A DNA stretch of 64,000 nt from Eledone cirrhosa (taxonomy: Eukaryota). Position 1 is the first letter of the stretch, and the number at the start of each line of letters is the position of its first letter. The notes below the pieces were generated by a model. That model was not told the DNA's origin. It worked only from the letters and a program-made list of their open reading frames with translations, and searched no databases. A program made the translations under genes and the position numbers. The stretch spans positions 149,544,001 to 149,608,000 of the forward strand of contig OZ024740.1 of assembly GCA_964016885.1 (NCBI GenBank), in the 5' to 3' direction. Positions 15,101-64,000 of the stretch are shown one piece after another.

Positions 15101-15918
15101 TACGTGATTGATTCTTTTGAATTTGCCACCGACCAAGTAGGCAGTGATTTTCTCAATGGCTTGGAACTTAGTCCACGCTTTGCTTTTTTCCAACCACTGA
15201 ATTATTTTTGTATAAGTTCTCTGTGTCCACGCATTGCCTGGGAACTTAGCTGAGAATAGACTTCCCTGATGACGAAAGGATTTCTCCATGCGTTCCTTCG
15301 GAAACCATGTTTATTCCCTTTCAGAAACTAATTAGTTGGAGTGAAATTTTAGTAAGTTAATTTTTATAATTTTCTTATTTTACGTCTTTCATATTATTGT
15401 TCTGCATCACCTTGCATTGAACCACAAAGTTACTAAGACAAAACCTATATATTTGCTAGCATAGGTATGCATCTGTATATATATGTTGGTAGATATACTA
15501 ATTCTTTATAATTATCTCCAAATTATTTTGTTGAGCAAAAATTTGCCAAAACTGCTACTAGAGTTCATAGTAATGGTTCGGCTGCTGTCTTCTTAACACA
15601 CCACTCCTCACTGATTAACCTCGATGTCACGTGATTGATTCTTTTGAATTTGCCACCGACCAAGTAGGCAGTGATTTTTTTCAATGTCTTGGAACTTAGT
15701 CCACGCTTTGCTTTTTTCCATCCACTGAATTATTTTTGTATAAGTTCCCTGTGTCCACACATTGCCTGGGAACTTAGCTGAGAATAGACTTCCCTGATAA
15801 CGAAAGGATTTCTCCATGCGTTCCTTCGGAAACCATGTTTATTCCCTTTCAGAAACTAATTAGTTGGAGTGAAATTTTAGTAAGTAAGTTAATTTTTATA
15901 ATTTTCTTATTTTACGTC

Positions 15919-26595: not shown

Positions 26596-26629
<34 letters not shown>

Positions 26630-27115
26630 TAAATTGAAACAAAATGAAAACGAAATTTCATTTCTCACTCTTAGTATGGCACTTACTTAAATGTAAGTAT
26701 GCATGTATACGTACATACATATATGTATACAGACGTACAGTAGCATGCACATATATATATATATATACATATATACATACATATGCATACAGGTACACAT
26801 ACATATATGCACGTATCAGTTTAGCGGCGCTAACGTCGCTTTGTTCGTTTGTATGAAACTAGTACATCGTTCCTGTGTCAGTGTTGAACAAAAAGGTGAC
26901 GTGGTTGCCTTAACACCGTATGGGATAAATTCAGGCTGTTCAGTTTGTTTACATACAAACGAACAAAGCGACGTTAGCGCCGCTAAACTGATACGTGCAT
27001 ATATGTATGTGTACCTGTATGCATATGTATGTATATATGTATATATATATATATATGTGCATGCTACTGTACGTCTGTATACATATATGTATGTACGTAT
27101 ACATGCATACTTATA
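26630..27115. repeat. Fold-back fragment of retrozyme-like subfamily B
   Basis: Inverted arm 26630-26853, forward arm 26854-27115 starting at TGAAACTAGTA; matches 43862-44181. Confidence 0.88.
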
Positions 27116-27488
27116 TATTAATATATTAATGAAAAAGAACAAAGGAACTATTATGACATTACAACAAGTTTATTGCCGACAGCTTTATGCACTTATTGAG
27201 GGATTTTTTAAGGTGCTTCTACGAGGTCCCAAGTCCTTTACTTTTAATGCGTAAATTATAAATTATCTAATTTTTAACCTTCAATCCCTAACTCTTAGGC
27301 CCTCTTCAAATTCTCTTAACACCCCATAACCCATCCCTTTTACAACTCCGACAACCAATATAAAAGAGCCCCCTTAGAATATAGACCCCAAATATACAAA
27401 CGGAGCTGCTGATGTATACCACAATTTCAAACTGCTAATCTTGAGTGAAACGTTGATGTAAATAATGAACTTACAATCACATGTTATA

Positions 27489-28188: not shown

Positions 28189-29780
28189 CTGTAAGAGACG
28201 ATCTGGACCTCTTAAACCACCTCCGCAAACATGTCAACAATGACACTATTATTGTGTCTTTCGATGTAGTGAATCTCTACACAACGATCCCACACCAATA
28301 CGGACTAGAAGCAATAGGATTCTGGCTAGAGAAATATCCCAATGAGATAACTGGCAGAATAGAAAATGGCTTCATCACCGAGGGATAAAAATTCATCTTA
28401 CAGAACAACTTTTTTGATTTCGATGGCAGTACTTACAAGCAAATATCGGGGACTGCGATGGGTACAAAAGCCGCTCCAACTTATGCCAACTTAGTCATGG
28501 CATACTTAGAAGTCCAGATATATGAACAGTCCAAATCAAAATACGGATTGAACTTCCACAAATATTTATCAGAGAATTGGAAACGCTACTTGGATGATTG
28601 TCTCATTCTTTGGTCCCACACACTCGACCAACTGAAGGATTTCAAAAACTTAATAAACGGCATCAATTAACACATCCAATTCACAATGGAATACAGCCAA
28701 GATCAACTCCCATTTCTGGACATCTTAATCTTAAAAAAAGACACAAATATTGAAATTGACATACACTACAAACCAACAGATTCCAAACAATACCTGCTAT
28801 TCACCTCCAACCATCCAAAGCACACGAAGACGAACATTCCTTTTAACCTAGCAAGAAGAATTTGCATAATTGTCTCCAATTATGAAACGCGAAATAAAAG
28901 ACTTCAAGAATTAAAGGAAATTCTACTCGAAAAAGAGTACCCACCATTACTAATAAATAATGGAATAGAAAAGGCTAAAGCAATAGGCATTGATGAATTA
29001 CGAAAACAGAAACAAATTCAAGGTACGTTCAATATTCTATCATATATCTCAACACACAACCCAAGAAATGCGGAAGCTTACAACACTATTCACAAGAACA
29101 TCCCACTACTAAAAAAAAACCCAAGAATCAAAAAAGCCCTTGAAACACACAAAATAATCAAAAGCAAAAGACAACCAAAATCACTGAAAACATTACTCAC
29201 CAATGCCAAATTACCTACCACAAACCCACAACCAACTGTCAAAAAATGTGGTCGCTCTAATTGTGGAACCTGCACTCACCTCATTGAAGGCAACACGTAT
29301 ACATTTAAATCAGGACAAAATTTTACTGTAAAAAATCACTTCACTTGCTCATTAAAAAATCTACTTTATGCCATTAAATGTAAAGGATGCAATGAAGATT
29401 ATATAGGACAAACTAAACTCACACTCAGAAACAGAATGACAGTTCATCGCCAACAATTACGAGATCCAACCACGAGACAGATACCACTAAGCGCATATCT
29501 AGACATTTTCCTAAACACACACACACGCACACACACACAATATATATATATATTCTCTTCATCTTAACATGCTAACCATACTCCCACACACACAACACCC
29601 ATACACACACATAACAACCCCCACTCCCACACACACAACTCCCTCCCCCATTTCTAATAATAGAATCACTTTCCTACACACACAAAATATATATATTCTC
29701 TCCATCTTAACATACTCCCACACACACACACATAACACCCATATACCCCCCCCCATTTCTATTAATAGAATCCTCTTCCA

Positions 29781-30605: not shown

Positions 30606-30610
<5 letters not shown>

Positions 30611-30814
30611 AACCAGTAAGACCCCGACAGCTGAGCTCAAGCCGTTTCGACGGCTAATTCTGGACTAATTCTGGACTAGTCCAGAATTAGCCGTCGAAAC
30701 GGCTTGAGCTCAGCTGTCGGGGTCTTACTGGTTCCTATTACCCACTCTACTACCTCAAGTATTGAGTACTTTGGTGCGTTATGGTCCACCTGGTTCCTTA
30801 CCACATTTCCTTCG

Positions 30815-30817
<3 letters not shown>
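30606..30817. repeat. Fold-back palindrome of Naiad-like pLTR end inside (TA)n
   Basis: About 60-bp perfect arms around GGACTAGTCC (30673-30682) with an 11-bp duplication at the centre; homologous to 21607-21746 and 23043-23114. Confidence 0.9.
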
Positions 30818-30861
<44 letters not shown>

Positions 30862-30865
<4 letters not shown>

Positions 30866-31128
30866 GAAATTCTATTTAAATTGTTGGGATACAACAAGCA
30901 AATATTTTTATAACTGATATAAAGCACTCAACAAATAATTGGAGTAAAAATACGATATTAACAAATGGAAACTCTATTTATAAAACCATATTTATTTCAT
31001 TATACATATTTCAAGGACACCAAGTTAAATTATGGTGTGCTTTCTTCGGATAAAATATAATATAGTGCAGTTTTATAAATGAATATTGACATACCCTTAA
31101 AGAATGCGACCATTACTGTTGGAAGCTC
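30862..31128 (-). mobile_element. PLE 3' terminus with HHR (family also at 45848 and 53406)
   Basis: Homologous to 45848-46110; minus-strand TATTTTAT-CCGAAGA..GAAA-TATGTA-TA-ATGAAATA at 30993-31057. Confidence 0.75.
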
Positions 31129-34100
31129 CATACGTACATATATATATATTATAATAAATATTCGGTGAATCCATACGTACATATATATATATGTGTGCAT
31201 GTATGTATATACATACTACTCTACGTCTGTATACATATATGTATGTTCGTATACATACTTATATTTAAGTAACAGCCATACTAAGAGAAATGAAATTTCG
31301 TTTCATTTTTTCCGTTTATCGTTTTAGGTACGCCCGGCCGATTAACTCACTCGATATGTAAATTAGGCTGCTCAGCCGTTAATATACATAAGGAAAGTAT
31401 ATACTTTCAGACGTTCAATCATCTGGCAGGAAGGTATGGTATATGTTGCTGACAATAGCTAATAAGCTTGAAACTAGTAGAGCGTTCCTTTGTCAGTGTT
31501 GAACAAATGAGCAACGATGGTTGCTAGACACTACGGCTTAATCCGGGATGTATGTTTAAAAACACCCCGAGCATTATAATACATGTTCGGTGAATCCATA
31601 CGTACATATATATGTGTGCATGTATGTATATATATATACATACTACTGTACGTCTGTATACATATATGTATGTACGTATACATACTTATATTTAAATAAC
31701 AGCCGTACTAAATTCCGTTTCACTTTTTTCCGTTTATCGCTTTCGGAGCGCCGGCCGATTAACTCACTCGATATGTAAATTAGGCTGCTCAGCCCTTAAT
31801 ATGCATAAGGAAAGTATATACTTTCAGACGTTCAATCATCTGGCAGAAAGGTATACGTTGCTGACGATAGCTAATAAGCTTTAAACTAGTACATTGTTCC
31901 TTTGTTAGTGTTTAACAAATGAGCAACGATGGTTGCTAGACACTGTACTGCTTAATCCGTGATGTTTGTTTACAAACACCGCGAGCATTATAATAAATGT
32001 TCGGTGAATCCATACGTATATATATATGTGTGCATGTATGTATATATATATACATACTACTGTACATCTGTATACATATATGTATGTACGTATACATATT
32101 TATATTTAAGTAACAGCCGTACTAAGAGAGAGAAATGAAATTTCGTTTCATTTTTTTCGTTTATCGATTTCGCTGCGCCCGGCCAATTAACTCACCCGAT
32201 AAGTAAATTAGGCTGCTCAGACGTTAATATGCATAAGGAAAGTATATACTTTCAGACGTTCAATCATCTGGCAGGAAGGTATACGTTGCTGACGATAGCT
32301 AATAAGCTTGAAACTAGTACATTGTTCCTTTGTCAGTGTTGAACAAATGAGCAACGATGGTTGCTCGACACTGTACTGCTTAATCCGGGATGTTTGTTTA
32401 CAAACACCGCGAGCATTATAATAAATGTTCGGTGAATCCATACGTACATATATATATGTGGGCATGTATGTATATATACATACATACTACTGTACGGTTG
32501 TATACATATATGAATGTACGTATACATACTTATATTAAAGTAACAGCCGTACTAAGAGTGAGAAATGAAATTTCATTTTTTTTTTCCGTTATCGTTTTCG
32601 GTGCGCCCGGCCGATTAACTAACTCAATATGTAAATTAGGCTGCTCAGCCGCTAATATGCATAAGGAAAGTATATACTTTCAGACGTTCAATCATGTGGC
32701 AGGAAGGTATACGTTGCTGACGATAGCTAAGAAAATTGAAACTAGTACAACGTTCCTTTGTTAGTGTTGAACAAATGAGAAACGATGGTTGCTAAAGACT
32801 GTACGGCTTAATCCAGGATATTTGTTTACACACACACCGAGCCTCATAATAAATGTTCGGTAAATCCATACGTACATATATATATGTGTGCATATATGTA
32901 TATATATATATACATACTACTGTACGTCTGTATACATATATGTAAGTACGTATAAATACTTATATTTAAGTAAGAGCCGTACTAAGAGTGAGAAATAAAA
33001 TTTCGTTTCATTTTTTCCGTTTATCGTTTTCGGTGCGCCCGGCCGATTAACTAACCCGATATGTAAATTAGGCTGCTCGGCCGTTAATATGCATCAGGAA
33101 AGTATATACTTTCAGACGTTCAATCATCTGGCAGGAAGGTATACGTTACTGACGATAGCTAATAAGCTTGAAACTAGTGCAGTGTTCTTTGTCAGTGTTG
33201 AACAAATGAGCAACGATGGTTGCTAAAGACTGTACGGCTTAATCCAGGATATTTGTTTACACACACACCGAGCATTAAAGTAAATGTTCGGTGAATCCAT
33301 ACGTACATATATATATGTGTGCATGTATGTATATATATATATATACATACTACTGTACATCTGTATACATATATGCAAGTACGTATAAATACTTCTATTT
33401 AAGTAACAGCCGTACTAAGAGAAATGAAATTTCGTTTCATTTTTTCCGTTAATCGTTTTCGGTGCGCCCGGCCGATTAACTCACCCGATATGGAAATTAG
33501 GCTGCTCGACCGTTAATATGCATCAGGAAAGTATATACTTTCAGACGTTCAATCATCTAGCAGGAAGGTATACGTTGCTGACGATAGCTAATAAGCTTGA
33601 AATTAGTACAGCGTTCCTTTGATAGTGTTGAACAAATGAGCAACGATGGTTGCTAGACACTGTACGGCTTAATCCGGGATGTATGTTTAAAAACACCCCG
33701 AGCATTATAATAAATGTTCAGTGAATCCATACGTACATATATATATGTGTGCATGTATGTATATATATATATACATACTACTGTACGTCTGTATACATAT
33801 ATGTAAGTACGTATAAATACTTATATTTAAGTAAGAGCCGTACTAAGAGTGAGAAATAAAATTTCGTTTCATTTTTTCCGTTTATCGTTTTCGGTGCGCC
33901 CGGCCGATTAACTCACCCGATATGTAAATTAGGCTGCTCGGCCGTTAATATGCATCAGGAAAGTATATACTTTCAGACGTTCAATCATCTGGCAGGAAGG
34001 TATACGTTACTGACGATAGCTAATAAGCTTGAAACTAGTGCAGTGTTCTTTGTCAGTGTTGAACAAATGAGCAACGATGGTTGCTAGACACTGTACTGCG

Positions 34101-37100
34101 TAATCCAGGATGTTTGTTTACAAACACCCCGAGCATTATAATAAATCTTCGGTGAATCCATACGTACATATATATATGTGTGCATGTATGTATATATATA
34201 TATACATACTACTGTACGTCTGTATACATATATGTAAGTACGTATAAATACTTATATTTAAGTAACAGCCGTACTAAGTGAAATGAAATTTCGTTTCATT
34301 TTTTCCGTTTATCCTTTTAGGTGCGTCCGGCCGATTAACTCACCCGATATGTAAATTAGGCTGCTCAGCCGTTAATATGCATAAGGAAAGTATATACTTT
34401 CAGACGTTCAATCATCTGGCATGAAGGTAAACGTTGCTGACGATAGCTAATAAGCTTGAAATTAGTACAGCGTTCCTTTGATAGTGTTGAACAAATGAGC
34501 AACGATGGTTGCTAGACACTGTACGGCTTAATCCGGGATGTATGTTTAAAAACACCCCGAGCATTATAATAAATGTTCGGTGAATCCATATGTACATATA
34601 TATATGTGTGCATGTATGTATATATATATATACATACTACTGTACGTCTGTATACATATATGTATGTACGTATACATACTTATATTTAAATAACAGCCGT
34701 ACTAAGTGTGAGAAATGAAATTCCGTTTCATCTTTTTCCGTTTATCGCTTTCGGTGCGCCGGCCGATTATCTCACTCGATATGTAAATTAGGCTGCTCAG
34801 CCCTTAATATGCATAAGGAAAGTATATACTTTCAGACGTTCAATCATCTGGCAGGAAGGTATACGTTGCTGACGATAGCTAATAAGCTTGAAACTAGTAC
34901 ATTGTTCCTTTGTCAGTGTTGAACAAATGAGCAACGATGGTTGCTAGACACTGTACGGCTTAATCCGGGATGTATGTTTAAAAACACCCCGAGCATTATA
35001 ATAAATGTTCGGTGAATCCATACGTACATATATATATGTGTGCATGTATGTATATATATATACATACTACTGTAAGTCTGTATACATATATGTATGTACG
35101 TATACATATTTATATTTAAGTAACAGCCGTACTAAGAGTGAGAAATGAAATTTCATTTCATTTTTTCCGTTTAACATTTTCGGTGCGCCCGACCGATTAA
35201 GTCACACGATATTTAAATTAGGCTGCTCAGCCGTTAATATGCATCAGGAAAGTATATACTTTCAGACGGTCAATCAATTGGCAGGAAGATATACGTTGCT
35301 GACGATAGCTAATAAGCTTGAAACTAGTACAGCGTTTCTTTGTCAGTGTTGAACACATGAGCAACGATGGTTGCTAGACACTGTTCGACTTAATACGGGA
35401 TGTTTGTTTACAAACACACCGAGCATTATAATAAATGTTCGGTGAATCCATACGTACGTATATATATATATGTGCATGTATGTATATATACATACTACTG
35501 TACGTCTGTATACATATATGTATGTACGTATACATACTTATATTTAAGTAACAGCCGTACTAACAGTGAGAAATAAAATTTCGTTTCATTTTTTTCGTTT
35601 ATCGCTTTCGGTGCGCCGGCCGATTAACTCACTCGATATGTAAATTAGGCTGCCCAGCCCTTAATATGCATAAGGAAAGTATATACTTTCAGACGTTCAA
35701 TCATCTGGCAGGAAGGTATACGTTGCTGACGATAGCTAATAAGCTTGAAACTAGTACATTGTTCCTTTGTCAGTGTTGAACAAATGAGCAACGATGGTTG
35801 CTAGACACTGTACTGCTTAATCCGGGATGTTTGTTTACAAACTCCGCGAGCATTATAATAAATGTTCGGTGAATCCATACGTACATATATATATGTGTGC
35901 ATGTATGCATATATATACATACATACTACTGTACGGTTGTATACATATATGAATGTACGTATACATACTTATATTAAAGTAACAGCCGTACTAAGAGTGA
36001 GAAATGAAATTTCATTTTTTTTTCCGTTATCGTTTTCGGTGCGCCCGGCCGATTAACTAACTCAATATGTAAATTAGGCTGCTCAGCCGCTAATATGCAT
36101 AAGGAAAGTATATACTTTCAGACGTTCAATCATCTGGCAGGAAGGTATACGGTGCTGACGATAGCTAAGAAACTTGAAACTAGTACAACGTTCCTTTGTT
36201 AGTGTTGAACAAATGAGCAACGATGGTTGCTAAAGACTGTACGGCTTAATCCAGGATATTTGTTTACACACACACCGAGCATTATAATAAATGTTCGGTG
36301 AATCCATACGTACATATATATATGTGTGCATGTATGTATATATACATATAGATACTACTGTACGTCTGTATACATATATGTAAGTACGTATAAATACTTA
36401 TATTTAAGTAACAGCCGTACTAAGAGAAATGAAATTTCGTTTCATTTTTTCCGTTATCGTTTTCGGTGCGCCCGGCCGATTAACTAACTCAATATGTAAA
36501 TTAGGCTGCTCAGCCGCTAATATGCATAAGGAAAGTATATACTTTCAGACGTTCAATCATCTGGCAGGAAGGTATACGTTGCTGACGATAGCTAAGAAAC
36601 TTGAAACTAGTACAACGTTCCTTTGTTAGTGTTGAACAAATGAGCAACGATGGTTGCTAAAGACTGTACGGCTTAATCCAGGATATTTGTTCACACACAC
36701 ACCGAGCATTATAATAAATGTTCGGTGAATCCATACGTACATATATATATATGTGTGCATGTATGTATATATACATATACATACTACTGTACGTCTGTAT
36801 ACATATATGTAAGTACGTATAAATACTTATATTTAAGTAAGAGCCGTACTAAGAGAAATGAAATTTCGTTTCATTTTTTCCGTTTATCCTTTTAGGTGCG
36901 CCCGGCCGATTAACTCACTTGATATGTAAATTAGGCTGCTCAACCGTTAATATGCATAAGGAAAGTATATACTTTCAGACGTTCAATCATTTGGCAGGAA
37001 GATATACGTTGCTGACGATAGCTAATAAGCTTGAAACTAGTACAGCGTTCCTTTGTCAGTGTTGAACAAATGAGCAACGATGTTTGTTAGACACTGTACC

Positions 37101-39774
37101 GCTTAATCAAGTATGTTTGTTTACACACACCCCGAGCATTATAATAAATGTTCAGTGAATCCATACGTACATATATATATATGTGTGCATGTATGTATAT
37201 ATATATATAGATACTAGTGTACGGTTGTATACATATATGTATGTTCGTATACATACTTATATTTAAGTAACAGCCATACTAAGAGAAAAGAAATTTCGTT
37301 TCATTTTTCCGTTTATCGTTTTCGGTACGCCCGGCCGATTAACTTACACGATATGTAAATTAGGCTGCTCAGTCTTTAATATGCATAAGGAAAGTATATA
37401 CTTTCAGACGTTCAATCATCTGGCAGGAAGGTATACGTTGCTGACGATAGCTAATAAGTTTTAAAATAGTACAGCGTTCCTTTGTCGGTGTTGAACAAAT
37501 GAGCAACGATGGTTGCTAGACACTGTACGACTTAATCCGGGATGTTTGTTTACAAACACACCGAGCATTATAATAAATGTTCGGTGAATCCATACGTACA
37601 TATATATAAGTGTGCATGTATGTATATATACATACTACTGTACGTCTGTATACATATATGTATCCCACCTCCCGTATACTAACACCCACTAACACCTCTT
37701 CACCAAACTACACACACACCAGTACACCACACTCCCTCTATAGAACCACACACACCCTTCTCTCCCCGCTCCACCCACACCCCCGCTCCACACTCACTCA
37801 TCCCACTAACACCCCTACTAATACACACACACACACACACACTCTCCTCACTCCAACTTTCACACCTACCCATCCTCGCCCCCTTACCATTCAAACGACT
37901 GCTGCTATGCCCTTCTGACCACCTCCCAGCACCAACAGACCACAGCACTCCCACTGCTGACCACTTCCTGTTGCGCGCGCACCCCACATCTCTCCTCTTC
38001 CGACCACCGCTTCATGGATTACCCACACGCAGAAATTGACTTATAACCAATCCTCCAAACATCCTTGGAACTTACCAACTTTTCAACCATCCTCTTACGT
38101 CATCACCTATATAACTCACCCACACACACACCCCCAAACATTTTTTTCTCCACACGCCACCCACACCCACAACACGCTTAAACCCCACACACACGTGCTT
38201 CCCACCAAATATTTACACCCTCAGCCTCCTGATTCCTCTCCCCCCACCCCCTATCCACACACGCACAGACACTCCGACCCACAAAAAGACCCCCCACACA
38301 CACCTCTTCCTGAACATGCAACCCCGTTCTTCCCCCAACCCTTACTTTCACATACACACACACACACACACACCTACACACACACACCACATTCAGCCCT
38401 CCCCGCTCGGACACCCCGTCTCCCTCTCCCCACTCCACCCGCCACCACCCCTACTCAACCCACACCCTTCCACCACCTGTTTACCCCACTTTTAATTTCA
38501 GTTTATTTTGATCATTCCTTTATTTTTAAATTTTCTCATTCCTTGTATTTTGATCATGCTTTATTTTTATTTCTTATCTTTATTTGTTAATTTTTCATTC
38601 GCACCGTTTCCTTTCGCTATATGTCTCTCCACCACTCCCCTACACACCTTTTGAACTCTGTTCCCACACACTTCTCACCTGAGTAAGGACTTATGCCCGA
38701 AACGTCGTCCCCCACCTACCCACCACTCTCCTGAGCGTGAAATTAATAAACATTTATTGTACTGCCTCTCTGTTTTGTCCCTGTTTAAATTTTTCCATTA
38801 CGTATACATACTTATATTTAAGTAACAGCCGTACTAAGACTGAGAAATGAAATTTCTTTTGATTTTTTCCGTTTATCGTTTTCGGTGCGCCCGGCCGATT
38901 AACTCACTTGATATGTAAATTAGGCTGCTCAGCCGTTAAAATGCATAAGGAAAGTATATACTTTCAGACGTTCAATCATTTGGCAGGAAGATATACGTTG
39001 CTGACGATAGCTAATAAGCTTGAAACTAGTACAGCGTTCCTTTTTCAGTGTTGAACAAATGAGCAACGATGGTTGCTAGACACTGTACGGCTTAATCCGG
39101 GATGTTTGTTTACAAACACACCGAGCCTTATAATAAATGTTCGGTGAATCCATAAGTACATATATATATATGTGTGCAAGTATGTATATATATATACATA
39201 TTATTGTACGTCTGTATACATATATCTATGTACGTATACATACTTATATTTAAGTAACAGTCGTACTAAGAGTGAGAAATGAAATTTCGTTTCATTTTTT
39301 CCGTTTATCTTTTTGGTGCACCCGGCCGATTAACTCACTCGATATGTAAATTAGGCTGCCCAGCCGTTAATATGCATAAGGAAAGTATATACTTTCAGAC
39401 GTTCAATCATCTGGCAGGAAGGTGTACATTGCTGACGATAGCTAATAAGCTTGAAACTAGTACAGCGTTCCTTTGTTAGTGTTGAACAAATGAGCAACGA
39501 TGGTTGCTAGACACTGTACGGCTTAATCCAGGATGTTTGTTTACACACACACCGAGCATTATAATAAATGTTCGGTGAATCCATACGTACATATATATAT
39601 GTGTGCAAGTATGTATATATATATATATACTACTGTACGTCTGTATACATATATGTATGTTCGTATACATACTTATATTTAAGTAACAGCCATACTAAGA
39701 GAAATGAAATTTCGTTTCATTTTTTCCGTTTATCGTTTTCGGTACGCCCGGCCGATTAACTCACTCGATATGTA

Positions 39775-39777
<3 letters not shown>
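31128..39777 (+). repeat. Tandem array of ~430-bp hammerhead-containing units (retrozyme-like satellite, subfamily A)
   Basis: 17 HHR cores at 31449, 31861, 32289, 32717, 33149, 33578, 34010, 34437, 34869, 35299, 35726, 36155, 36582, 37012, 37441, 39001, 39432; consensus ACGTTG-CTGACGA-T-AGCT aata AGCT-T-GAAA-CTAG-TA-CARCGT. Confidence 0.95.
37664..38798 (+). mobile_element. CA/C-rich PLE 3' UTR fragment inserted in the array
   Basis: Interrupts a unit at ATATGTAT|TACGTATAC; degenerate PLE-type HHR CTGAGTAA-GGAC ttat GCCC-GAAAC-GTC at 38679-38706; AATAAA downstream. Confidence 0.7.
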
Positions 39778-41485: not shown

Positions 41486-41631
41486 AAGAGAGAGACAGAG
41501 AGAGAAATTTATAAAAAATATATATATTTTATATATATATATAATATATATATATATATAAAATATATATATATATATATATATATTTATAATATATATA
41601 TATATATAAAAAATATATATATATATATAAA

Positions 41632-41684
<53 letters not shown>

Positions 41685-41686
41685 TA

Positions 41687-41722
<36 letters not shown>

Positions 41723-42333
41723 ATATATATATATATATATAATATAATTATATATATATACAATATATATATATATATATATAATATAATTATATATATA
41801 TAAAATATAATTATATATATATATAAAATATATATTTATATATATAAAATATAATTATATATATATATAAAATATATATATATATATATAAAATATATTT
41901 ATATATATATATATAAAATATTTTTATATATATATATATGAAATATATATATATATAAAATATATTTATATATATATATATGAAATATATATATATATGA
42001 AATATATATATATATAAAATATATTTATATATATATAAAATATATTTATTTATATAAATTATATTATATATATATATATGAAATATATATATATATAATA
42101 TATTTATATATATATAAAATATATTTATATATATATAAAATATATTTATATATATAAATTATATTATATATATATATATAATATATTTATATATATATAA
42201 AATATATTTATATATATATAAAATATATTTATATATATAATATATTTATAGATATATAAAATATATTTATATATATATATATATAAAATATATTTATATA
42301 TTTAAAATATATTTATATATATATATGTATTAA

Positions 42334-42386
<53 letters not shown>
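41449..42386. repeat. (TA)n / AAAATATATTT cryptic minisatellite (also 27695-28037, 44588-45847, 48849-49868, 50390-50668, 51447-51947, 52801-53405)
   Basis: Almost pure A/T; (TA)n punctuated by palindromic AAATATATTT. Confidence 0.95.
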
Positions 42387-42392
<6 letters not shown>

Positions 42393-43658
42393 GTTAAAAA
42401 TGTACATCCACATATGTATACTGAAATACTAGTATGCATATGAATACACACACGTATACATATGTAGATGTACCGAGTTTTTCACTGGTCACTTTACTGT
42501 GAGTGTCCAGCTATTCTGTATGTAAACACACAGACAAACCGGTTTTTAGAGTCATACTGGTTTTTGAGAAAACACCTTTCCTCTATTCTCCAGAAAGCCA
42601 GACAAGGAATATTGAACTAGTTTCGATGTTGTTACAACTCATCAGCAATATTTACCTATCTTCCGGCCTTTCTAGAGAATCGTAAAAGCACATATCGTTA
42701 TATGCTTTTTCTATGAAAATTAGTAGTGGGCAGACTAATTTGCATAGAGCGTGAGTACGTACCGGTTCAACGGAGACGATAAAAACAAATAACCAAACGA
42801 AATTAAATTTCGTTTCGTTTGTAACTCACTTTTGTATGACTGACGCTTAAACAATTAAGTTAAAAATGTACATCCACATATGTATACTGAAATACTAGTA
42901 TGCATATGAATACACACACGTATACATATGTAGATGTACCGAGTTTTTCACTGGTCACTTTACTGTGAGTGTCCAGCTATTCTGTATGTAAACACACAGA
43001 CAAACCGGTTTTTAGAGTCATACTGGTTTTTGAGAAAACACCTTTCCTCTATTCTCCAGAAAGCCAGACAAGGAATATTGAACTAGTTTCGATGTTGTTA
43101 CAACTCATCAGCAATATTTACCTATCTTCCGGCCTTTCTAGAGAATCGTAAAAGCACATATCGTTATATGCTTTTTCTATGAAAATTAGTAGTGGGCAGA
43201 CTAATTTGCATAGAGCGTGAGTACGTACCGGTTCAACGGAGACGATAAAAACAAATAACGAAACGAAATTAAATTTCGTTTCGTTTGTAACTCACTTTTG
43301 TATGACTGACGCTTAAACAATTAAGTTAAAAATGTACATCCACATATGTATACTGAAATACTAGTATGCATATGAATACACACACGTATACATATGTAGA
43401 TGTACCGAGTTTTTCACTGGTCACTTTACTGTGAGTGTCCAGCTATTCTGTATGTAAACACACAGACAAACCGGTTTTTAGAGTCATACTGGTTTTTGAG
43501 GAAACACCTTTCCTCTATTCTCCAGAAAGCCAGACAAGGAATATTGAACTAGTTTCGATGTTGTTACATCTCATCAGCAATATTTACCTATCTTCCGGCC
43601 TTTCTAGAGAATCGTAAAAGCACATATCGTTATATGCTTTTTCTATGAAAATTAGTAG
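42387..43658 (-). repeat. Tandem array of 466-bp hammerhead-containing units (subfamily C), 2.7 copies
   Basis: Units start at 42387, 42853, 43319; minus-strand TATTG-CTGATGA-GWTG taacaa CATC-GAAA-CTAG-TT-CAATA at 42606-42664, 43072-43130, 43538-43596. Confidence 0.93.
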
Positions 43659-43686
43659 AAGGCCGGAAGATAGGTAAATATTGCTG

Positions 43687-44623
<937 letters not shown>

Positions 44624-45847: not shown

Positions 45848-48844
45848 GCAAAAGTTCTATTTAAAGTTGTTGGGATACAACAAGTAAATATTTTTATAAC
45901 TGATATAAAGCACTCGACAAGTTTTGGGAGTAGATATACGATATTAATAAATGGAAACTATATTTATAAAACCATATTTATTTCATTATACATATTTCAG
46001 GGATACCACATTAATTTATGGTATGCCTTCATCAGACAAAATACAATATATAACAGTTTTACAAATAGCTTTGACGTACCCTTTTAAAATGCAACCATTA
46101 CTTTTGGAGGCTGTCTAGATAGTGATTTGTTTATATTATTTTAATAAGTCATAGTGTTAAGTACAATTAGAAAAAGACGGATAGAAAGAAAAAAAAAGAA
46201 AAAAGACGGAGAGAGAGAAAGAAAACCTGGAGAAATATCGGAGAGAGAGAGAAATGTATGGAGAAAAGAAAGAGATAAATACAGATAGGAGGAAATAAAA
46301 AAGAAAGAAAGAAATAAGAAAAACAAAGGAAAGCAACAGAGAGATATCAAGTCATCATACAGATAGAAAAACTCAAGAAAGAGAAATACTATATAGAGAG
46401 AGGGGGAGACAATGATAACTTTACGTCATGTCATACTAAGTTGAGTTAACAATTTATATGAAATGAATAATAAAAATATAAATATCAATATTCATGAATG
46501 GGACATAGATATATAATATGAGAAATTAAACATTGTTCAATAATGACTATATGTTTAGTTTAAAAACTTGAGATCAATATACCAAAATCTGAGTTAAATC
46601 GTTCAAAATGTACCCTTGGTATAGAGATCAGTATCTTATGCAAAGACATACAAATATATATGTATATATATATATATATATACACACATACGCACGTCCT
46701 GAAAATAGAAATTATGTTTACTCAAGCCAACAATATAGCCATACAAAACGTAAATGATTTCTCTTAATCAGTGCTATACATTCCTTGTGTTATAAAAAGT
46801 TCACAGTATATATACATAAATATATACGATTAATATTCATGTCCTCATATATACGATTACCATTCATCTATTTAATATTATGCATATCTGCAACATACCT
46901 CTCACCCACATAGATATATATACATACATATATACACATACATATGTATAAATAAATATTTGCGTGCGTCGTCCCGCATCGCTCATGTATATATACAGAC
47001 ATATATACAAACACAAAAAACCTATAAGACTTTATATGCATGTTAATACACACATATGCATTTGTATAGAGATAATCAAATATCAATATATTACTAAAGG
47101 ATTATAACTTGTAAACATAAGCATAACAATATAAATTTAAAATACCAAAGGAATATATTTTGGAAATGCAACTATATCAGTATATTCAAAAGAAATCTAG
47201 AAATATCAAAGCATTAAATATCTTTAAAACACTATAGAGTATCTTAAGTTAAAATAATATGTTTTATATATTTAGTATAGAAATTTATCCTACGTATATC
47301 TCAATCAAGATATTGAAAGGGTAGACTTATGAAAGTTATGAGAAGCTATCAGAATCAACACAAATAAATAAAAATAATTTAAAAGATTTAAAAAACCCAA
47401 TGATTCTACAGATAACCTTATATTTAGTATAGAAATTTATCTTACGTATATTTTATTTAATACATTGGAAGTATAGACATTTTAGAGTAGTTTATTATAT
47501 CCATGTTTATATTTAGGAAGAAAGTTTAAAAAGAAAAAGGTGAAGGAATCTAATGATTTATCGACAGTTTTCATATATTAACTAAATTACTTAATTAATT
47601 ATACTACATTTTAAGTTTATATTTATATTTAAACGTTGAGTTCAACTTATGTCTGCAGCAACTGAATAAATTGTTCCTTAGATTAAGGGAATTTTTGGAC
47701 TTTAATATAAAGAATATTTCTTCAATACAAAGATCACAATTTTCTGAAGAGGAATTAAAAGGATTAGCTTTCGAAATAATATTCCAATTCATCGAATATT
47801 TAATATTATCTCGTTTTAGGTCCCATAGTAAGCTAGATAGCGAAGTTGAAGATTTTTTGTTTGGATCTGTGAAAGAATTCTTATGATTATTGAAGCGAAA
47901 TTTAAATTCTGTAGAGGTGGAACCAACATAGTTAAATTAGTTTTAACATTACAATTGTACACTACGTTTTTAGCTAAGCAGTTGTTATTTAACGGACAGT
48001 TAGATTTATTTCTACAGTTACAGTTAATTAATTGAATATTGTTTGGGTTATTATTGGTATTTTGGTTAGGTTTTAAATTCCTATTATTAATTCTATTAAT
48101 ATTTTGTGCTAAATTTTTGGTGGACGAGTAAGTTAATTTTATAGTGTGTCTATTAAAAATTGAGTAATATTTATGTGTTCTAGGGAAGCGTTTGTCAAGA
48201 GCTTTAAAGAATAGTTTAGAAATAGGGGTTTTAATATTTAGTGAGAAAGGGGGAGCAAACGATAATATATTTCTAGTTCTATTTCTTTTTCGGCTTTTGG
48301 AATTATTGTAATGTTTTCTATTATAGTTGTTAAAGTTGTTACCGTAATTGAAATTGTTATTATTTTGGTTAGTTTGCTTATTATTATTATTATCGATGTA
48401 TTTAATTTTATTTCTATATCCAGCTCTACCTAACGCTTCGTTGTAATACTCCGCTTTTTCATCAAATATATTTTTATTAGATGAAATTCTTGAAATTCGT
48501 TCTTGAACAGAGTTCACTATAGTATTTTTAACAGATCTGGGGTGATTAGAGTTAAAGTTGACATAATTCAAGTTCTCATTTAGTTTGTGAAATGGATAAT
48601 GAAGACATGTATTGAGATTTAGTGTTACATCAAGAAAATTGACTATTTTATGGTTGTTCTCTATTTCTATCTTTAGATTAAGGTAGTTAAAAAATTGTAT
48701 AATTTGTTTTCTTTTTCTATTTAGTTCACAGCTATTATTTTCTATAAGTAAAAGCATGTCATCACGATATAATCCTTTTTATTATGTTTATAATTTGTTG
48801 TATTACCCTGTCTAGAATATTTTTGCTAAGTTTTCCCAGGTCAG

Positions 48845-48848
<4 letters not shown>
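45848..48848 (-). mobile_element. Naiad-like PLE, 5'-truncated; ORF remnant 47604-48847, long 3' UTR with HHR at 45979-46043
   Basis: GLYRDD, VNFLDVTLNL, SNHP, CNCRNKSNCPLNNNC, CDLC, CRH; HHR TATTTTGT-CTGATGA-AGGcATACCATA..TGTGGTATcCCT-GAAA-TATGTA-TA-ATGAAATA. Confidence 0.9.
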
Positions 48849-48902
<54 letters not shown>

Positions 48903-52309: not shown

Positions 52310-52356
52310 ATGTGTGTATACGTACATACATATATGTATACAGACGTACAGTAGCA

Positions 52357-52422
<66 letters not shown>

Positions 52423-52803
52423 GAGGTACACATACATATATGCACATATCAGTTTAGCAGACGCTTATTATAACGCCGCTTTGTTCGTTTGTAAAAAAAC
52501 TGAACAGCCTGAATTTTTATGCCGTACGGTGTTACACCGTACGGCATAAAAATTCAGGCTGTTCAGTTTACAAACGAACAAAGCGGCGTTATAATAAGCG
52601 TCTGCTAAACTGATATGTGCATATATGTATGTGTACCTGTATGTATATATATATATGTATGTATATATATATATATATATATGCATGCTACTGTACGTCT
52701 GTATACATATATGTATGTACGTATACACACATACTTACATTTAAGTAAGTGGCGTACTAAGAGTGAGAAATGAAATTTCGTTTTCATTTTTTTTCAACTC
52801 ATT
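52310..52803. repeat. Fold-back fragment of subfamily B variant
   Basis: Centre GCCGTACGGTGT-T-ACACCGTACGGC (52521-52545); right arm homologous to 43921-44181. Confidence 0.88.
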
Positions 52804-53405: not shown

Positions 53406-53408
<3 letters not shown>

Positions 53409-54528
53409 AAAGTTATATTTAAAATTGTTGGGTTACAACTAGTAAATATTTATAACTGATATAAAAGCACTCGACAAATATTTGGAGTATATTTACAATA
53501 TTAAATAAATGGAAACTATATTTATAAAACCATATTTATTTCATTATATATATTTCGGGGATATCATATTAACAATATGCTATGCCTTCCTCAGACAAAA
53601 TACAATATAAACAGTTTTATAGATAAATAGATTCGACATACCGTAATAACATCGACTTGCATTTGAAGAGGTTAAGCTGGCAGTGAAAAAATTTTACACA
53701 GAGAGAAAGAAAGAGAGAAAAAAGAAAGAAAGACAGAAAACGAAGAAAAGGAAGAAAAAGAAGAAATGCATGGAACAAAATAGAGAGATGGAAAGATAGA
53801 TAAAGAGAAGAACTTCATGTAAAAAAACACAGAAAGAGATATATATATATATATAGAGAGAGGAAATAGAGATAGATACATATATATATAGAGAGAAAAT
53901 TAGGTAGTGGGAGGTCAGTTGAGTAAATGTATCAATAATACATTTATTTATTTATTTATTTATTTAGCTCTAGTATTAATGTAAGGGAGATATATATAGA
54001 GAGAAAAAAAATATATATATTTTTTCTCTATATATATATCTCCCTTACATTAATACTAGAGCTAAATAAATAAATAAATAAATAAATGTATTATTGATAC
54101 ATTTACTCAACTGACCTCCCACTACCTAATTTTCTCTATATATATATATGTATCTATCTCTATTTCCTCTCTCTCTATATATATATATCTCTTTCTGTGT
54201 TTTTTTACATGAAGTTCTTCTCTTTATCTATCTTTCCATCTCTCTATTTTGTTCCATGCATTTCTTCTTTTTCTTCCTTTTCTTCGTTTTCTGTCTTTCT
54301 TTCTTTTTTTCTCTCTTTCTTTCTCTCTGTGTAAAATTTTTTCACTGCCAGCTTAACCTCTTCAAATGCAAGTCGATGTTATTACGGTATGTCGAATCTA
54401 TTTATCTATAAAACTGTTTATATTGTATTTTGTCTGAGGAAGGCATAGCATATTGTTAATATGATATCCCCGAAATATATATAATGAAATAAATATGGTT
54501 TTATAAATATAGTTTCCATTTATTTAAT

Positions 54529-54533
<5 letters not shown>
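53406..54533. repeat. About 1-kb perfect palindrome of PLE 3' terminus, one HHR per arm
   Basis: Arms about 53495-54014 and 54015-54533; HHR TATTTTGT-CTGAGGA..GAAA-TATATA-TA-ATGAAATA at 54426-54491 (+) and 53537-53602 (-). Confidence 0.9.
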
Positions 54534-54583
<50 letters not shown>

Positions 54584-62221: not shown

Positions 62222-64000
62222 GTGTGTGTGTGTGTGTGTGTATGTGTAGGATACTTTCGTAAATAGCCAAAACGGTGCATAATGGAAAAATAAGTGATAT
62301 AACCCTGAAATGGGGATAAAACAGGTTTGACGTAAATCGACATAAAAATATTTCTCGAATGATGAAAATAGTTAAATAATTATTAAAAAAAGATTTTTCA
62401 GTGATTTCTCAGTGAATATGATTTCAAAACTACAAGTTGTTTGCACTTCAAGTATCCATATTCGAGCTATCTTTAAACAGACGATATTTTAATTATCAGA
62501 AAAACATTAAATGAATATCACTGAAAAATACCAGTTGGTGTTAAACAGTAGGTGTTTATATGTTTGCTTTTGTTAAAAAGAATATTTCAGTTATTTAGAA
62601 ATATTTAAAAGTGAATTTGATTTCACAAATAGCTTTATTTACATAGACAATATCTTCATTTTTTTAAAATTATTTTCAAGTGAATACGATGGAAAAAATA
62701 TTTCTTGGCATATTTAAAAAATATTCTTAAGTGAAAATGACTTAAAAAATACAAATTATTTGAACACTGAGTATATATATTTCAGCTTTCTTTAAACAGA
62801 ATATTTTAATTATTAATAAGTAGTTTTTAAGTGAATATGATTTGAAAAATACGAGTTGTTTAAACAGACAATATTTTCATTATTTAGAAATATTTCTAAA
62901 TGATGATTTAAAAAAAATATTTGTTGAGGTAATAGGAATTTTTTCTTAGGTGAATACGATTTTCTATTCTTAAATAATGCCTCGACGAGGAAGAAAGAAA
63001 ACATCTGGTTGGTCTATCGATAGTGGAAAGAAAGCACGGCTAAGGAGAGCCGAAGAAGGTGAGCAAGATAGTGGTCAACGCCAACAAGATCGAGACAGGC
63101 ATGCGAATAGAAGGATCGATGAGACTGATAAAGCAAGGGCTGCGCGTCTGGCGGAACAGAGGGAAAGAGACAGAAGCAGGAGAGATCATGAATCGGATGG
63201 TCGGAGAGCTGCGCGTCTGGCGAAACAGAAGGAAAGAGACAGAAGCAGGAGAGATCATGAATCGTGTGGTCGGAGAGCTGAGCGTCTGGCGGAACAGAGG
63301 GAAAGAGACAGAAGCAGGAGAGATCATGAATCGGATGGTCGGAGAGCTGCGCGTCTGGCGAAACAGAAGGAAAGAGACAGAAGCAGGAGAGATCATGAAT
63401 CGTGTGGTCGGAGAGCTGAGCGTCTGGCGGAACAGAGGGAAAGAGACAGAAGCAGGAGAGATCATGAATCGGATGGTCGGAGAGCTGCGCGTATGGCGGA
63501 ACAGAAGGAAAGAGACAGAAGCAGGAGAGATCATGAATCGGATGGTCGGAGAGCTGAGCATCAGGCAGAACAGAGGGAAAGAGACAGAAGAAGGAGAGAT
63601 CATGAATCGGACGCTCGGAGAACTGAATGTCTTTGCCAACAAACCATTAGGGATAGAGCAAGGACAGTTCAACGACGTGACCTCTCTGCTGATGTTGGAC
63701 AGATGAATAAGATCTGTGTCTGTTGTCATGCAATGCTTTTTCATGGTGAAACTGCTAACTTTTGCTGTATGAATGGAAAAGTCAGGTTGGGGAATCTGCA
63801 CCCTTTACCCCAGGACCTTCACAGTTTATTTAGTACTGATCAACCTAGGGCAAACGAGTTCAGGAAGAACCTCAGACAATACAACTGCCTGTTCCAAATG
63901 ACATCTTTTGGGGCCGAAGAAGTTCGTTCCTCAAGGAGTGGATGGAATCCTTCTATCGTTATTCATGGTCAAATTCACCATTACATCGGTTCCTTAACCC
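61422..64000 (+). mobile_element. Helitron 5' part
   Basis: A|TCTATCTATC..TCTACTACTAAAA 5' end, internal degenerate repeats, then RepHel ORF. Confidence 0.75.
62977..64000 (+). CDS. Helitron RepHel N-terminus, open to window end (not in ORF track)
   Basis: MPRRGRKK.., about 7 x 23-aa (69-bp) R/E-rich repeats, then DVGQMNKICVCCHA..E...CCMNGKV, FRKNLRQYNCLFQMTSFGA, IHGQIHHYIGSL; ATG 62977 and ATG 63703 share a frame. Confidence 0.9.
   Translation, partial: MPRRGRKKTSGWSIDSGKKARLRRAEEGEQDSGQRQQDRDRHANRRIDETDKARAARLAEQRERDRSRRDHESDGRRAARLAKQKERDRSRRDHESCGRRAERLAEQRERDRSRRDHESDGRRAARLAKQKERDRSRRDHESCGRRAERLAEQRERDRSRRDHESDGRRAARMAEQKERDRSRRDHESDGRRAEHQAEQRERDRRRRDHESDARRTECLCQQTIRDRARTVQRRDLSADVGQMNKICVCCHAMLFHGETANFCCMNGKVRLGNLHPLPQDLHSLFSTDQPRANEFRKNLRQYNCLFQMTSFGAEEVRSSRSGWNPSIVIHGQIHHYIGSLT

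Follow-up and report, generated by a model that had tools for sequence, protein, structure and literature searches.

What is the 466-bp tandem repeat at 42387-43658, and how did it come to lie in a (TA)n microsatellite? We analyzed a window of 64,000 nucleotides of the Eledone cirrhosa genome and searched the 3.0 Gb of that host genome for related sequences. The repeat is a tandem array with a period of 466 bp, 2.7 copies, and 99% identity (TRF), as a preliminary description had stated, and its copies differ at 3 sites. We call this unit subfamily C, and two related units subfamilies A and B. Unit positions are given as q, which runs along window 42853-43318 on the minus strand.

The locus and its hammerhead units

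The C array is the left arm of a single insertion into (TA)n, at 42387-44181, and the right arm is a B-subfamily unit (Table 1). The extent first given, 42387-43658, is right for the C array and too short for the insertion, which continues to about 44181. The fold-back copy of C at the inversion junction ends in a 3-nt TGA overlap with B, and the B arm terminates at what we define below as the tailed fixed end. The preliminary description had taken the opposite strand to be a trait of the subfamily; it is not, since in nearly every insertion each of the two strands carries an arm. Its suggestion of a recent multimeric insertion holds in that the insertion is young and multi-armed. However, copies 1 and 2 share two changes that are missing from copy 3, so one C unit was probably duplicated after insertion. 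One of these two changes has just 3 occurrences genome-wide.

Table 1. Features of the insertion and of neighboring elements in the window
Feature	Position	Strand	Basis or remark
A-subfamily array, 430 bp, 15.2 + 2.3 copies, 91-92%	31148..39777	+	older sister
(TA)n target microsatellite, left flank	41518..42386	.	TRF and sequence
Left arm, outer end: tail-less fixed end, q466	42387	-	BLAST of fetched loci
Left arm, 2.7 C units	42387..43658	-	TRF and BLAST of fetched loci
Type I HHR, copy 1, stem II GTTG/CATC mismatch	42592..42663	-	Rfam HH9, 34 bits, and motif
Further 74-nt tail segment	42779..42852	-	
Type I HHR, copy 2, stem II mismatch as in copy 1	43058..43129	-	Rfam HH9 and motif
TATGCAAATTAG-CTGC-CA block (copy 2)	43176..43214	-	one arm and loop of predicted hairpin
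74-nt tail segment, q1-74, between the two fixed ends (copy 2)	43245..43318	-	AT-rich hairpin
Type I HHR, copy 3, stem II GATG/CATC, GUU, palindromic ACUAGU stem III	43524..43595	-	Rfam HH9, 36.5 bits, and fold
Left arm, inner 5' truncation at q127		-	
29-nt fold-back copy of C, q183-211, at inversion junction	43659..43687	+	sequence, BLAST match
Right arm, ~1.05 B units with HHR (core 43842, GUA)	43688..44181	+	
(TA)n target microsatellite, right flank	44182..44369	.	TRF
Family P copy, 5'-truncated and frameshifted, between (TA)n runs	45848..48850	-	separate insertion, candidate mobilizer type

By its genomic features, C is a subfamily of a non-LTR retrozyme. The units are tandem, non-coding, a few hundred bp long, and below 50% GC, each with one type I hammerhead ribozyme (HHR), and they contain no LTR, PBS, or PPT (PBS and PPT judged by reading). 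Genome-wide there were 7,819 matches to the C-type HHR, 40,322 to the HHR core of the whole family (2 in the control), and 4,462 to a C-specific 23-mer (0 in the control), as expected for a dispersed, high-copy, mobile sequence. The (TA)n target masks target-site duplications; one duplication of ~40 bp was seen, at L089. C and B sequences are present in contigs of two other organisms, so the family is not limited to the source species.

C and A are homologous along the whole unit. Outside the HHR, global alignment of C with each of the three A units tried gave z scores of 14.4-15.5 relative to 200 dinucleotide shuffles, and of 8.0-11.0 once purine-pyrimidine-alternating stretches were removed. 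The alignment is colinear, with 272 identities in 438 columns. The claimed homology to the 430-bp A unit thus stood up to shuffling, which supports C as a sister subfamily of A.

Related and HHR-like sequences lie in the window and elsewhere. A CA-rich 1.1-kb insert that looks like the 3' region of another PLE interrupts the A array at 37664-38798, splitting it inside its hairpin, and has a minimal HHR-like motif at 38679. Two further complete B insertions in (TA)n, each with one tailed and one tail-less arm, are at 26627-27117 and 52310-52803. L141 and L142 are A-like variants with C-G or C.A at the base of stem II and the triplet GUU, and possibly represent an older subfamily. Other families of HHR-like motifs, some without a nearby open reading frame and possibly further retrozyme or PLE families, are found at window positions 15266, 15794, 17688, 19109, 46035, and 50750 and in L153, L156, L163, and L164.

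The HHR fold appears to be conserved across the subfamilies. In the C units, the core is that of type I (CUGANGA / GAA / NUH), stems I-III are present, and stem I is the open one. The three HH9 matches score 34-36.5 bits (E 1e-5 to 9e-5), all below the Rfam gathering score of 52, and the HHR consensus predicts cuts between 42615 and 42614 in copy 1 and between 43081 and 43080 in copy 2. Stem I of C is AATATTG/CAATATT. The pairing of this stem, stem II of copy 3, the ACTAGT palindrome, and the triplet are all as had been described. The form ACGTTG/CAACGT given for stem I of A does exist, but it is a minority form: CAACGTT is present in 3 of 16 listed A cores, next to CAGCGTT (6), CATTGTT (4), and other forms (3). 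The statement that the stems still pair in all three subfamilies does not hold at every position: in A and B, stem II has a U.U mismatch at its base.

We aligned 25 HHR regions, hand-picked by core pattern from 108 distinct ones, so that invariance of the core is partly by construction. In a 23-pair structure, 87.2% of cells were paired, versus 33-43% when the structure was slid, and 10 of the 23 pairs had changed on both sides. Stem I extends beyond a UA bulge into a distal helix whose register is identical in C, B, and A, and which adds two compensated pairs. Six of the compensations sit on the branch between C and A/B. Since most of the two-sided changes sit on that single branch, the independent compensatory events are few (~9). 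The earlier proposal that covariation implies selection on the ribozyme fold is thus upheld as far as conservation of the fold goes, but the changes amount to ~9 events, which do not make a genome-wide covariation signal.

The stem II mismatch of copies 1 and 2 is a private defect and not a trait of the subfamily. The stem II pair that switched from U-A to A-U is mismatched in only 4 of the 7,819 C-type HHRs, in a search that allowed A or T on either side, and each of the two matched forms is frequent in the first 100 matches listed. The four mismatches are three GTTG/CATC and one GATG/CAAC. Because copies 1 and 2 account for two of just three genome-wide occurrences of GTTG/CATC, we consider the mismatch private to them.

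The HHR is predicted to cleave as a dimer through the ACUAGU palindrome. Isolated HHR regions have weak predicted folds (z -0.2 to -1.7); those of the monomers have z of about -10 (C) and -5.8 (A).

We looked for a promoter in the unit. Newt satellite 2 has an snRNA-type promoter with an octamer. A promoter of this type from the octamer block of C was not supported: three U2 upstream regions lack the octamer, the comparison of octamer and PSE with these regions (n=3) gave only weak, uncorrected matches that are not conserved between C and A/B, and the octamer block is also within a predicted hairpin. Runs of T4-T5 argue against transcription by Pol III. The U2 genes of the host lie in 2.2-kb tandem arrays (L171-L182), and their upstream regions, without the octamer, have a common block near -55.

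Three further observations in the window are unrelated to the insertion. Rfam matches to miRNAs were rejected as TA-rich noise. Fragments of a PIF1 helicase (Pfam PF05970, PF21530) at 341-1964 are probably the remnant of a Helitron. A 69-bp minisatellite of 7.1 copies at 63139-63625 is in frame within open frames of both strands.

Two fixed ends and two arms

A C insertion has two inverted, tail-out arms. Their 5' ends vary, and their 3' ends lie at two fixed places that are 74 nt apart. One fixed end is tailed (T), at q72-75, and the other is tail-less (N), at q463-470. To avoid best-hit bias, we took the first 100 matches of the C-specific 23-mer in order of position, sampled every locus to which they belong (31 loci), and read the ends by eye. 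There were 24 two-arm T+N loci, 4 single T arms, and 3 unreadable loci, and the second arm was shorter than about 40 nt in 6 loci. Of 14 further listed loci, 9 were T+N (2 with a tiny second arm) and 5 were single or unreadable.

Pairing of the ends was nearly exclusive. Inverted 5'-truncated arms with both 3' ends outward were present in 33 of the 45 position-ordered loci (12 were single-armed or unreadable). All 33 readable two-arm loci were T+N, and neither T+T nor N+N occurred among the 45. After dropping the 8 loci in which the second arm was shorter than about 40 nt, 25 of 25 were T+N, which has a probability of 3e-8 if the ends are drawn independently, T and N being equally likely. Sixteen best-hit loci were also T+N. 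One counter-example, on an unplaced contig and chosen for another reason (L198), has T plus a T-like fold-back end, and a lone tail-less arm was found at L162.

The pattern is not limited to C. A and B insertions end at two homologous places, with tails of about 54-60 nt, so that an optional tail at one end, as from two starts of reverse transcription (RT), is seen in C with homologous ends in A and B. Both the inverted 5'-truncated copies and the tail at one end are traits of Penelope-like elements (PLEs; PMC8557442). Inner 5' ends are scattered over the unit, and the arms are joined by overlaps of 1-9 nt or by short inserts. Either arm may be the longer one: at L062/L063, there are 31 tail-less C units and 0.7 tailed units. 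L021 and L022, on different contigs and with different flanks, are inverted at an identical junction (q281/q141) that has a complementary overlap of 6 nt. A candidate arm, the foreign right side of L074, was rejected because its orientation is wrong.

The structure of the ends bears on how the inverted arms arose. Inverted arms joined via microhomology resemble the products of twin priming by L1, in which case a LINE-type RT would have primed at the RNA 3' end and again at a chance internal microhomology. We give this explanation almost no weight. That both outer ends are fixed already largely refutes it; in addition, poly(A) is absent, other places in the unit match TA better than the fixed sites do, and either arm can be longer. 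A fold-back model in which the tail-less arm is copied from the cDNA of the tailed arm was also rejected, because the tail-less arm is often longer and sometimes of another subfamily.

The window locus fits the T+N pattern, with its N arm from C and its T arm from B. We infer that a C RNA was the template of the tail-less arm and a B RNA that of the tailed arm. Joins of two templates are a minority: besides the window locus (C/B), they were found at L076, where the tail is 20 nt long and of B type, and at L084, which combines two haplotypes of C.

Spread at the DNA level is very unlikely in our estimation. In such an account the units would have dispersed as a satellite, by unequal exchange, extrachromosomal circles, or Helitron-like rolling circle, and the C/B junction would be the product of a deletion or a misassembly. 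Local duplication is evident, a deletion between two insertions could leave N and T ends by chance, and none of the independent contigs from four runs, which cover both arms, spans the C/B junction. However, the dispersed loci, variable 5' ends, fixed 3' ends, and single type of target fit retrotransposition, the fold-back insert and 3-nt overlap at the C/B junction resemble those of single-family insertions, and L076 and L084 are two further mixed loci.

Template and mobilizer

The two arms of an insertion share variants. They differ by 1.0% on average, compared to 3.0% between an arm and the median other locus (34 two-arm loci), and are mutually closest among the sampled loci in only 15 of the 34. 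At L087, L093, L095, and L098, derived variants are common to all units of both arms. This fits one RNA haplotype that was read repeatedly, as on a circle; a homogeneous linear multimer gives the same sharing of haplotypes. Arms pass the HHR cut site repeatedly. Long arrays grew partly by later duplication, and the periodic variants of L062/L063 and L096, which repeat every few units, point to later higher-order duplication or to multimeric circles.

The template was probably a circular RNA. The same PLE-type insertion could also have used a linear multimer, uncut or partly cut, with the HHR incidental and kept for 5' end formation or for stability, which we regard as unlikely yet the most serious of the alternatives. 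HHR cleavage is dispensable for insertion by the Anolis Poseidon element PAc in vitro (PMC11167929), 1 of 9 Xenopus dimers was cleaved (Li et al., bioRxiv 10.64898/2026.07.22.740005), and homogeneous source arrays exist (L062/L063, L098). In addition, 6 of 49 arm 5' ends lie no more than 20 nt past the cut site (p 0.018), but this clustering is weak (best-window p 0.77). Collision on one linear RNA would predict a pile-up of 5' ends at the other priming site, and none was seen. The retrozymes of mussel, coral, and axolotl are circles (PMC7229834).

The host genome contains abundant PLEs with the features of the Hydra clade. Family P, of which one copy lies next to the insertion (Table 1), is abundant and young, with 83,806 candidates, listed copies that are mostly 92-98% identical, and open frames of up to 816 aa. 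Its open reading frames (L131 and L132) have the Hydra motifs RW, DKT, CxCX5C linker, CxxC, and CxH, and no CCHH, as compared with section 11 of PMC8557442. With these motifs, the (TA)n target, and the HHR, family P can be assigned by sequence to the Hydra clade. A Pfam search of Hydra-type open reading frames gave no match; the Atlas neighbors of the family P proteins carry GIY-YIG/HTH_animal, and the PLE proteins of this genome resemble Hydra-1_Obim by eye. The Hydra linker motif CxC-X-CP has 25,713 matches in the genome (214 in the control), from at least ten families.

PLEs and the retrozyme insert in the same way. The coding families P and Q have bimodal ends that are 84 and 80 nt apart, respectively, and distinct inverted pairs were T+N in 7 of 7 cases for P and 8 of 8 for Q. 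Since both insert in the same genome with two arms and two fixed ends, PLEs likely copy the retrozyme. Within the window, short inverted insertions of Q and P-like Hydra 3' ends, also T+N, are at 30608-30815 and 53406-54540. At 30863-31128, a tailed 3' end of family P (minus strand) directly abuts the beginning of the A array, and no (TA)n separates the two; the junction at 31128 is possibly a chimera of a PLE and an A retrozyme, and the far end of the A array is non-canonical.

The sequences do not imply that the retrozyme descends from a PLE. When A, B, and C were compared with 11 Hydra 3' regions, which represent about 10 families, no homology was found beyond a TA/TG-rich hairpin, so that we name neither a parent nor a specific partner. 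Nor did these 11 regions and 10 long P loci, from a genome that has more families, show homology that would mark the pLTR or 3' end of a partner. A profile search for a parent PLE matched the TA/TG hairpin only. Comparisons of tails gave one of 15 at p 0.007 and a second at 0.037. A parent near the "CNCRNRADCPL" family was considered and rejected, as the adjacent B and A copies are separate insertions behind (TA)n runs.

We considered whether another (TA)n-targeting PLE, of Neptune, Nematis, or Naiad type, might be the mobilizer instead of Hydra. Tails and inversions occur in PLEs generally, and (TA)n is the preferred target of Naiads (PMC8557442). Other PLE types are also in the window, where a GIY-YIG frame at 28671-29567 has a different linker, and no sequence homology with Hydra was found in the 11 3' regions. 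We judge this distinctly improbable: Hydra elements are abundant and young here, their tails of 80-84 nt fit those of the retrozyme (54-74 nt) better than the 30-40 nt of other PLEs do, and cephalopod Naiads are reported to be long inactive.

Based on these results, we think it likely that a non-autonomous hammerhead retrozyme was copied in trans by the RT/endonuclease of a Hydra-clade PLE, from two start sites on a probably circular RNA. Tandem units would be transcribed, probably by read-through. The HHRs are predicted to cut as dimers via the palindrome, giving 466-nt monomers that a host ligase would close. The PLE protein would then bind the tail region and nick both strands of (TA)n, with one 3'-OH starting cDNA at q74 (tailed) and the other at q466-470 (tail-less). 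Each cDNA would be of variable length, often several rounds of the unit. The cDNA ends may then be joined by microhomology or short templated inserts, as the observed junctions suggest, and arrays may later expand through local duplication.

A more specific version could account for the pairing of ends. If the Hydra enzyme is a dimer that uses circles as rolling-circle templates and reads the tail by its shape, and if its two active sites are committed to different starts, every two-armed insertion would be T+N. The two sites might occasionally load different RNAs (C and B, perhaps PLE and retrozyme). We offer this version tentatively, and think it somewhat less than an even prospect. If it is true, loading of two RNAs would be a route for recombining families.

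Relation to known retrozymes and PLEs

The family resembles the metazoan non-LTR retrozymes (Cervera and de la Pena 2020, PMC7229834). Those described there consist of tandemly repeated, GC-poor units, each with a single type I HHR; they fall into several subfamilies, reach copy numbers in the tens of thousands, and have a monomer that is strongly self-paired. In axolotl, HHR_Amex1 has a stem III of one pair and a palindromic tetraloop, as here, and cleaves as a dimer, and HHR_Amex2 has U.U at the base of stem II, as in A and B. In contrast, the C unit of 466 bp is slightly over their range of 150-450 bp, and an invertebrate here has the dimer-type stem III of amphibians. Newt satellite 2, as told in that paper, is also alike in its tandem units and dimer HHR. 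The available part of the text contains neither "inverted" nor "cephalopod".

Hydra-clade PLEs such as Hydra-1_Obim (Craig et al. 2021, PMC8557442) have a (TA)n target, an HHR near the 3' end, an inverted 5'-truncated arm, and a tail at one end, all like the retrozyme. The retrozyme differs in having no open reading frame and no detectable homology to them. Tails in the source genome are 54-84 nt and not 30-40 nt, and the pairing of tailed with tail-less ends, which that paper gives only as "often", is near-exclusive here. Non-autonomous PLEs of the MRC1 type in Chlamydomonas (PMC8557442) form multicopy head-to-tail insertions like those of the retrozyme, but their 3' sequence is common with the partner and their clade is mostly without HHRs.

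A biochemical parallel is Anolis Poseidon PAc in vitro (Frangieh et al. 2024, PMC11167929). Two internal RT starts define its tail, the target is AT-rich, both target strands are extended, and a dimer is predicted. It differs in being of another clade and acting on its own RNA in cis, with no non-autonomous template. The parts of that study available to us report no start-site difference between strands, and so leave the strict T+N rule unexplained.

A role for PLEs in moving such retrozymes was proposed in 2020, when PLEs were named only as a strong candidate partner (PMC7229834). It was argued for vertebrates in a 2026 preprint on Xenopus retrozymes (Li, Clavereau, Pollet, bioRxiv 10.64898/2026.07.22.740005), which concludes, in line with our reading, that PLEs mobilize animal retrozymes. 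The evidence in the available text of that preprint is co-occurrence and pLTR homology and not insertion structure, whereas our evidence comes from insertion structure and we saw no pLTR homology. "Tail" and "mollus" are absent from that text, and "inverted" occurs only in a reference. We found no earlier report of the PLE signature on a retrozyme in the open-licence PMC and bioRxiv literature.

So far, the role of PLEs has been proposed from shared HHRs, co-occurrence, and the pLTR homology in Xenopus. The source genome adds a physical signature, carried by thousands of young insertions. It also offers a candidate clade whose open frames are long, as well as exact predicted start sites on the 466-nt RNA, q74 and q466. 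What is new, as far as the open-licence literature shows, is a mollusc-type family with a dimer-type HHR, the tail and inversion signature of PLEs on a retrozyme, the near-exclusive T+N pairing in common with Hydra PLEs, and insertions made from two templates. Any account of how PLEs form tails and inverted structures, so far unexplained, would have to accommodate the T+N rule and the two-template chimeras.
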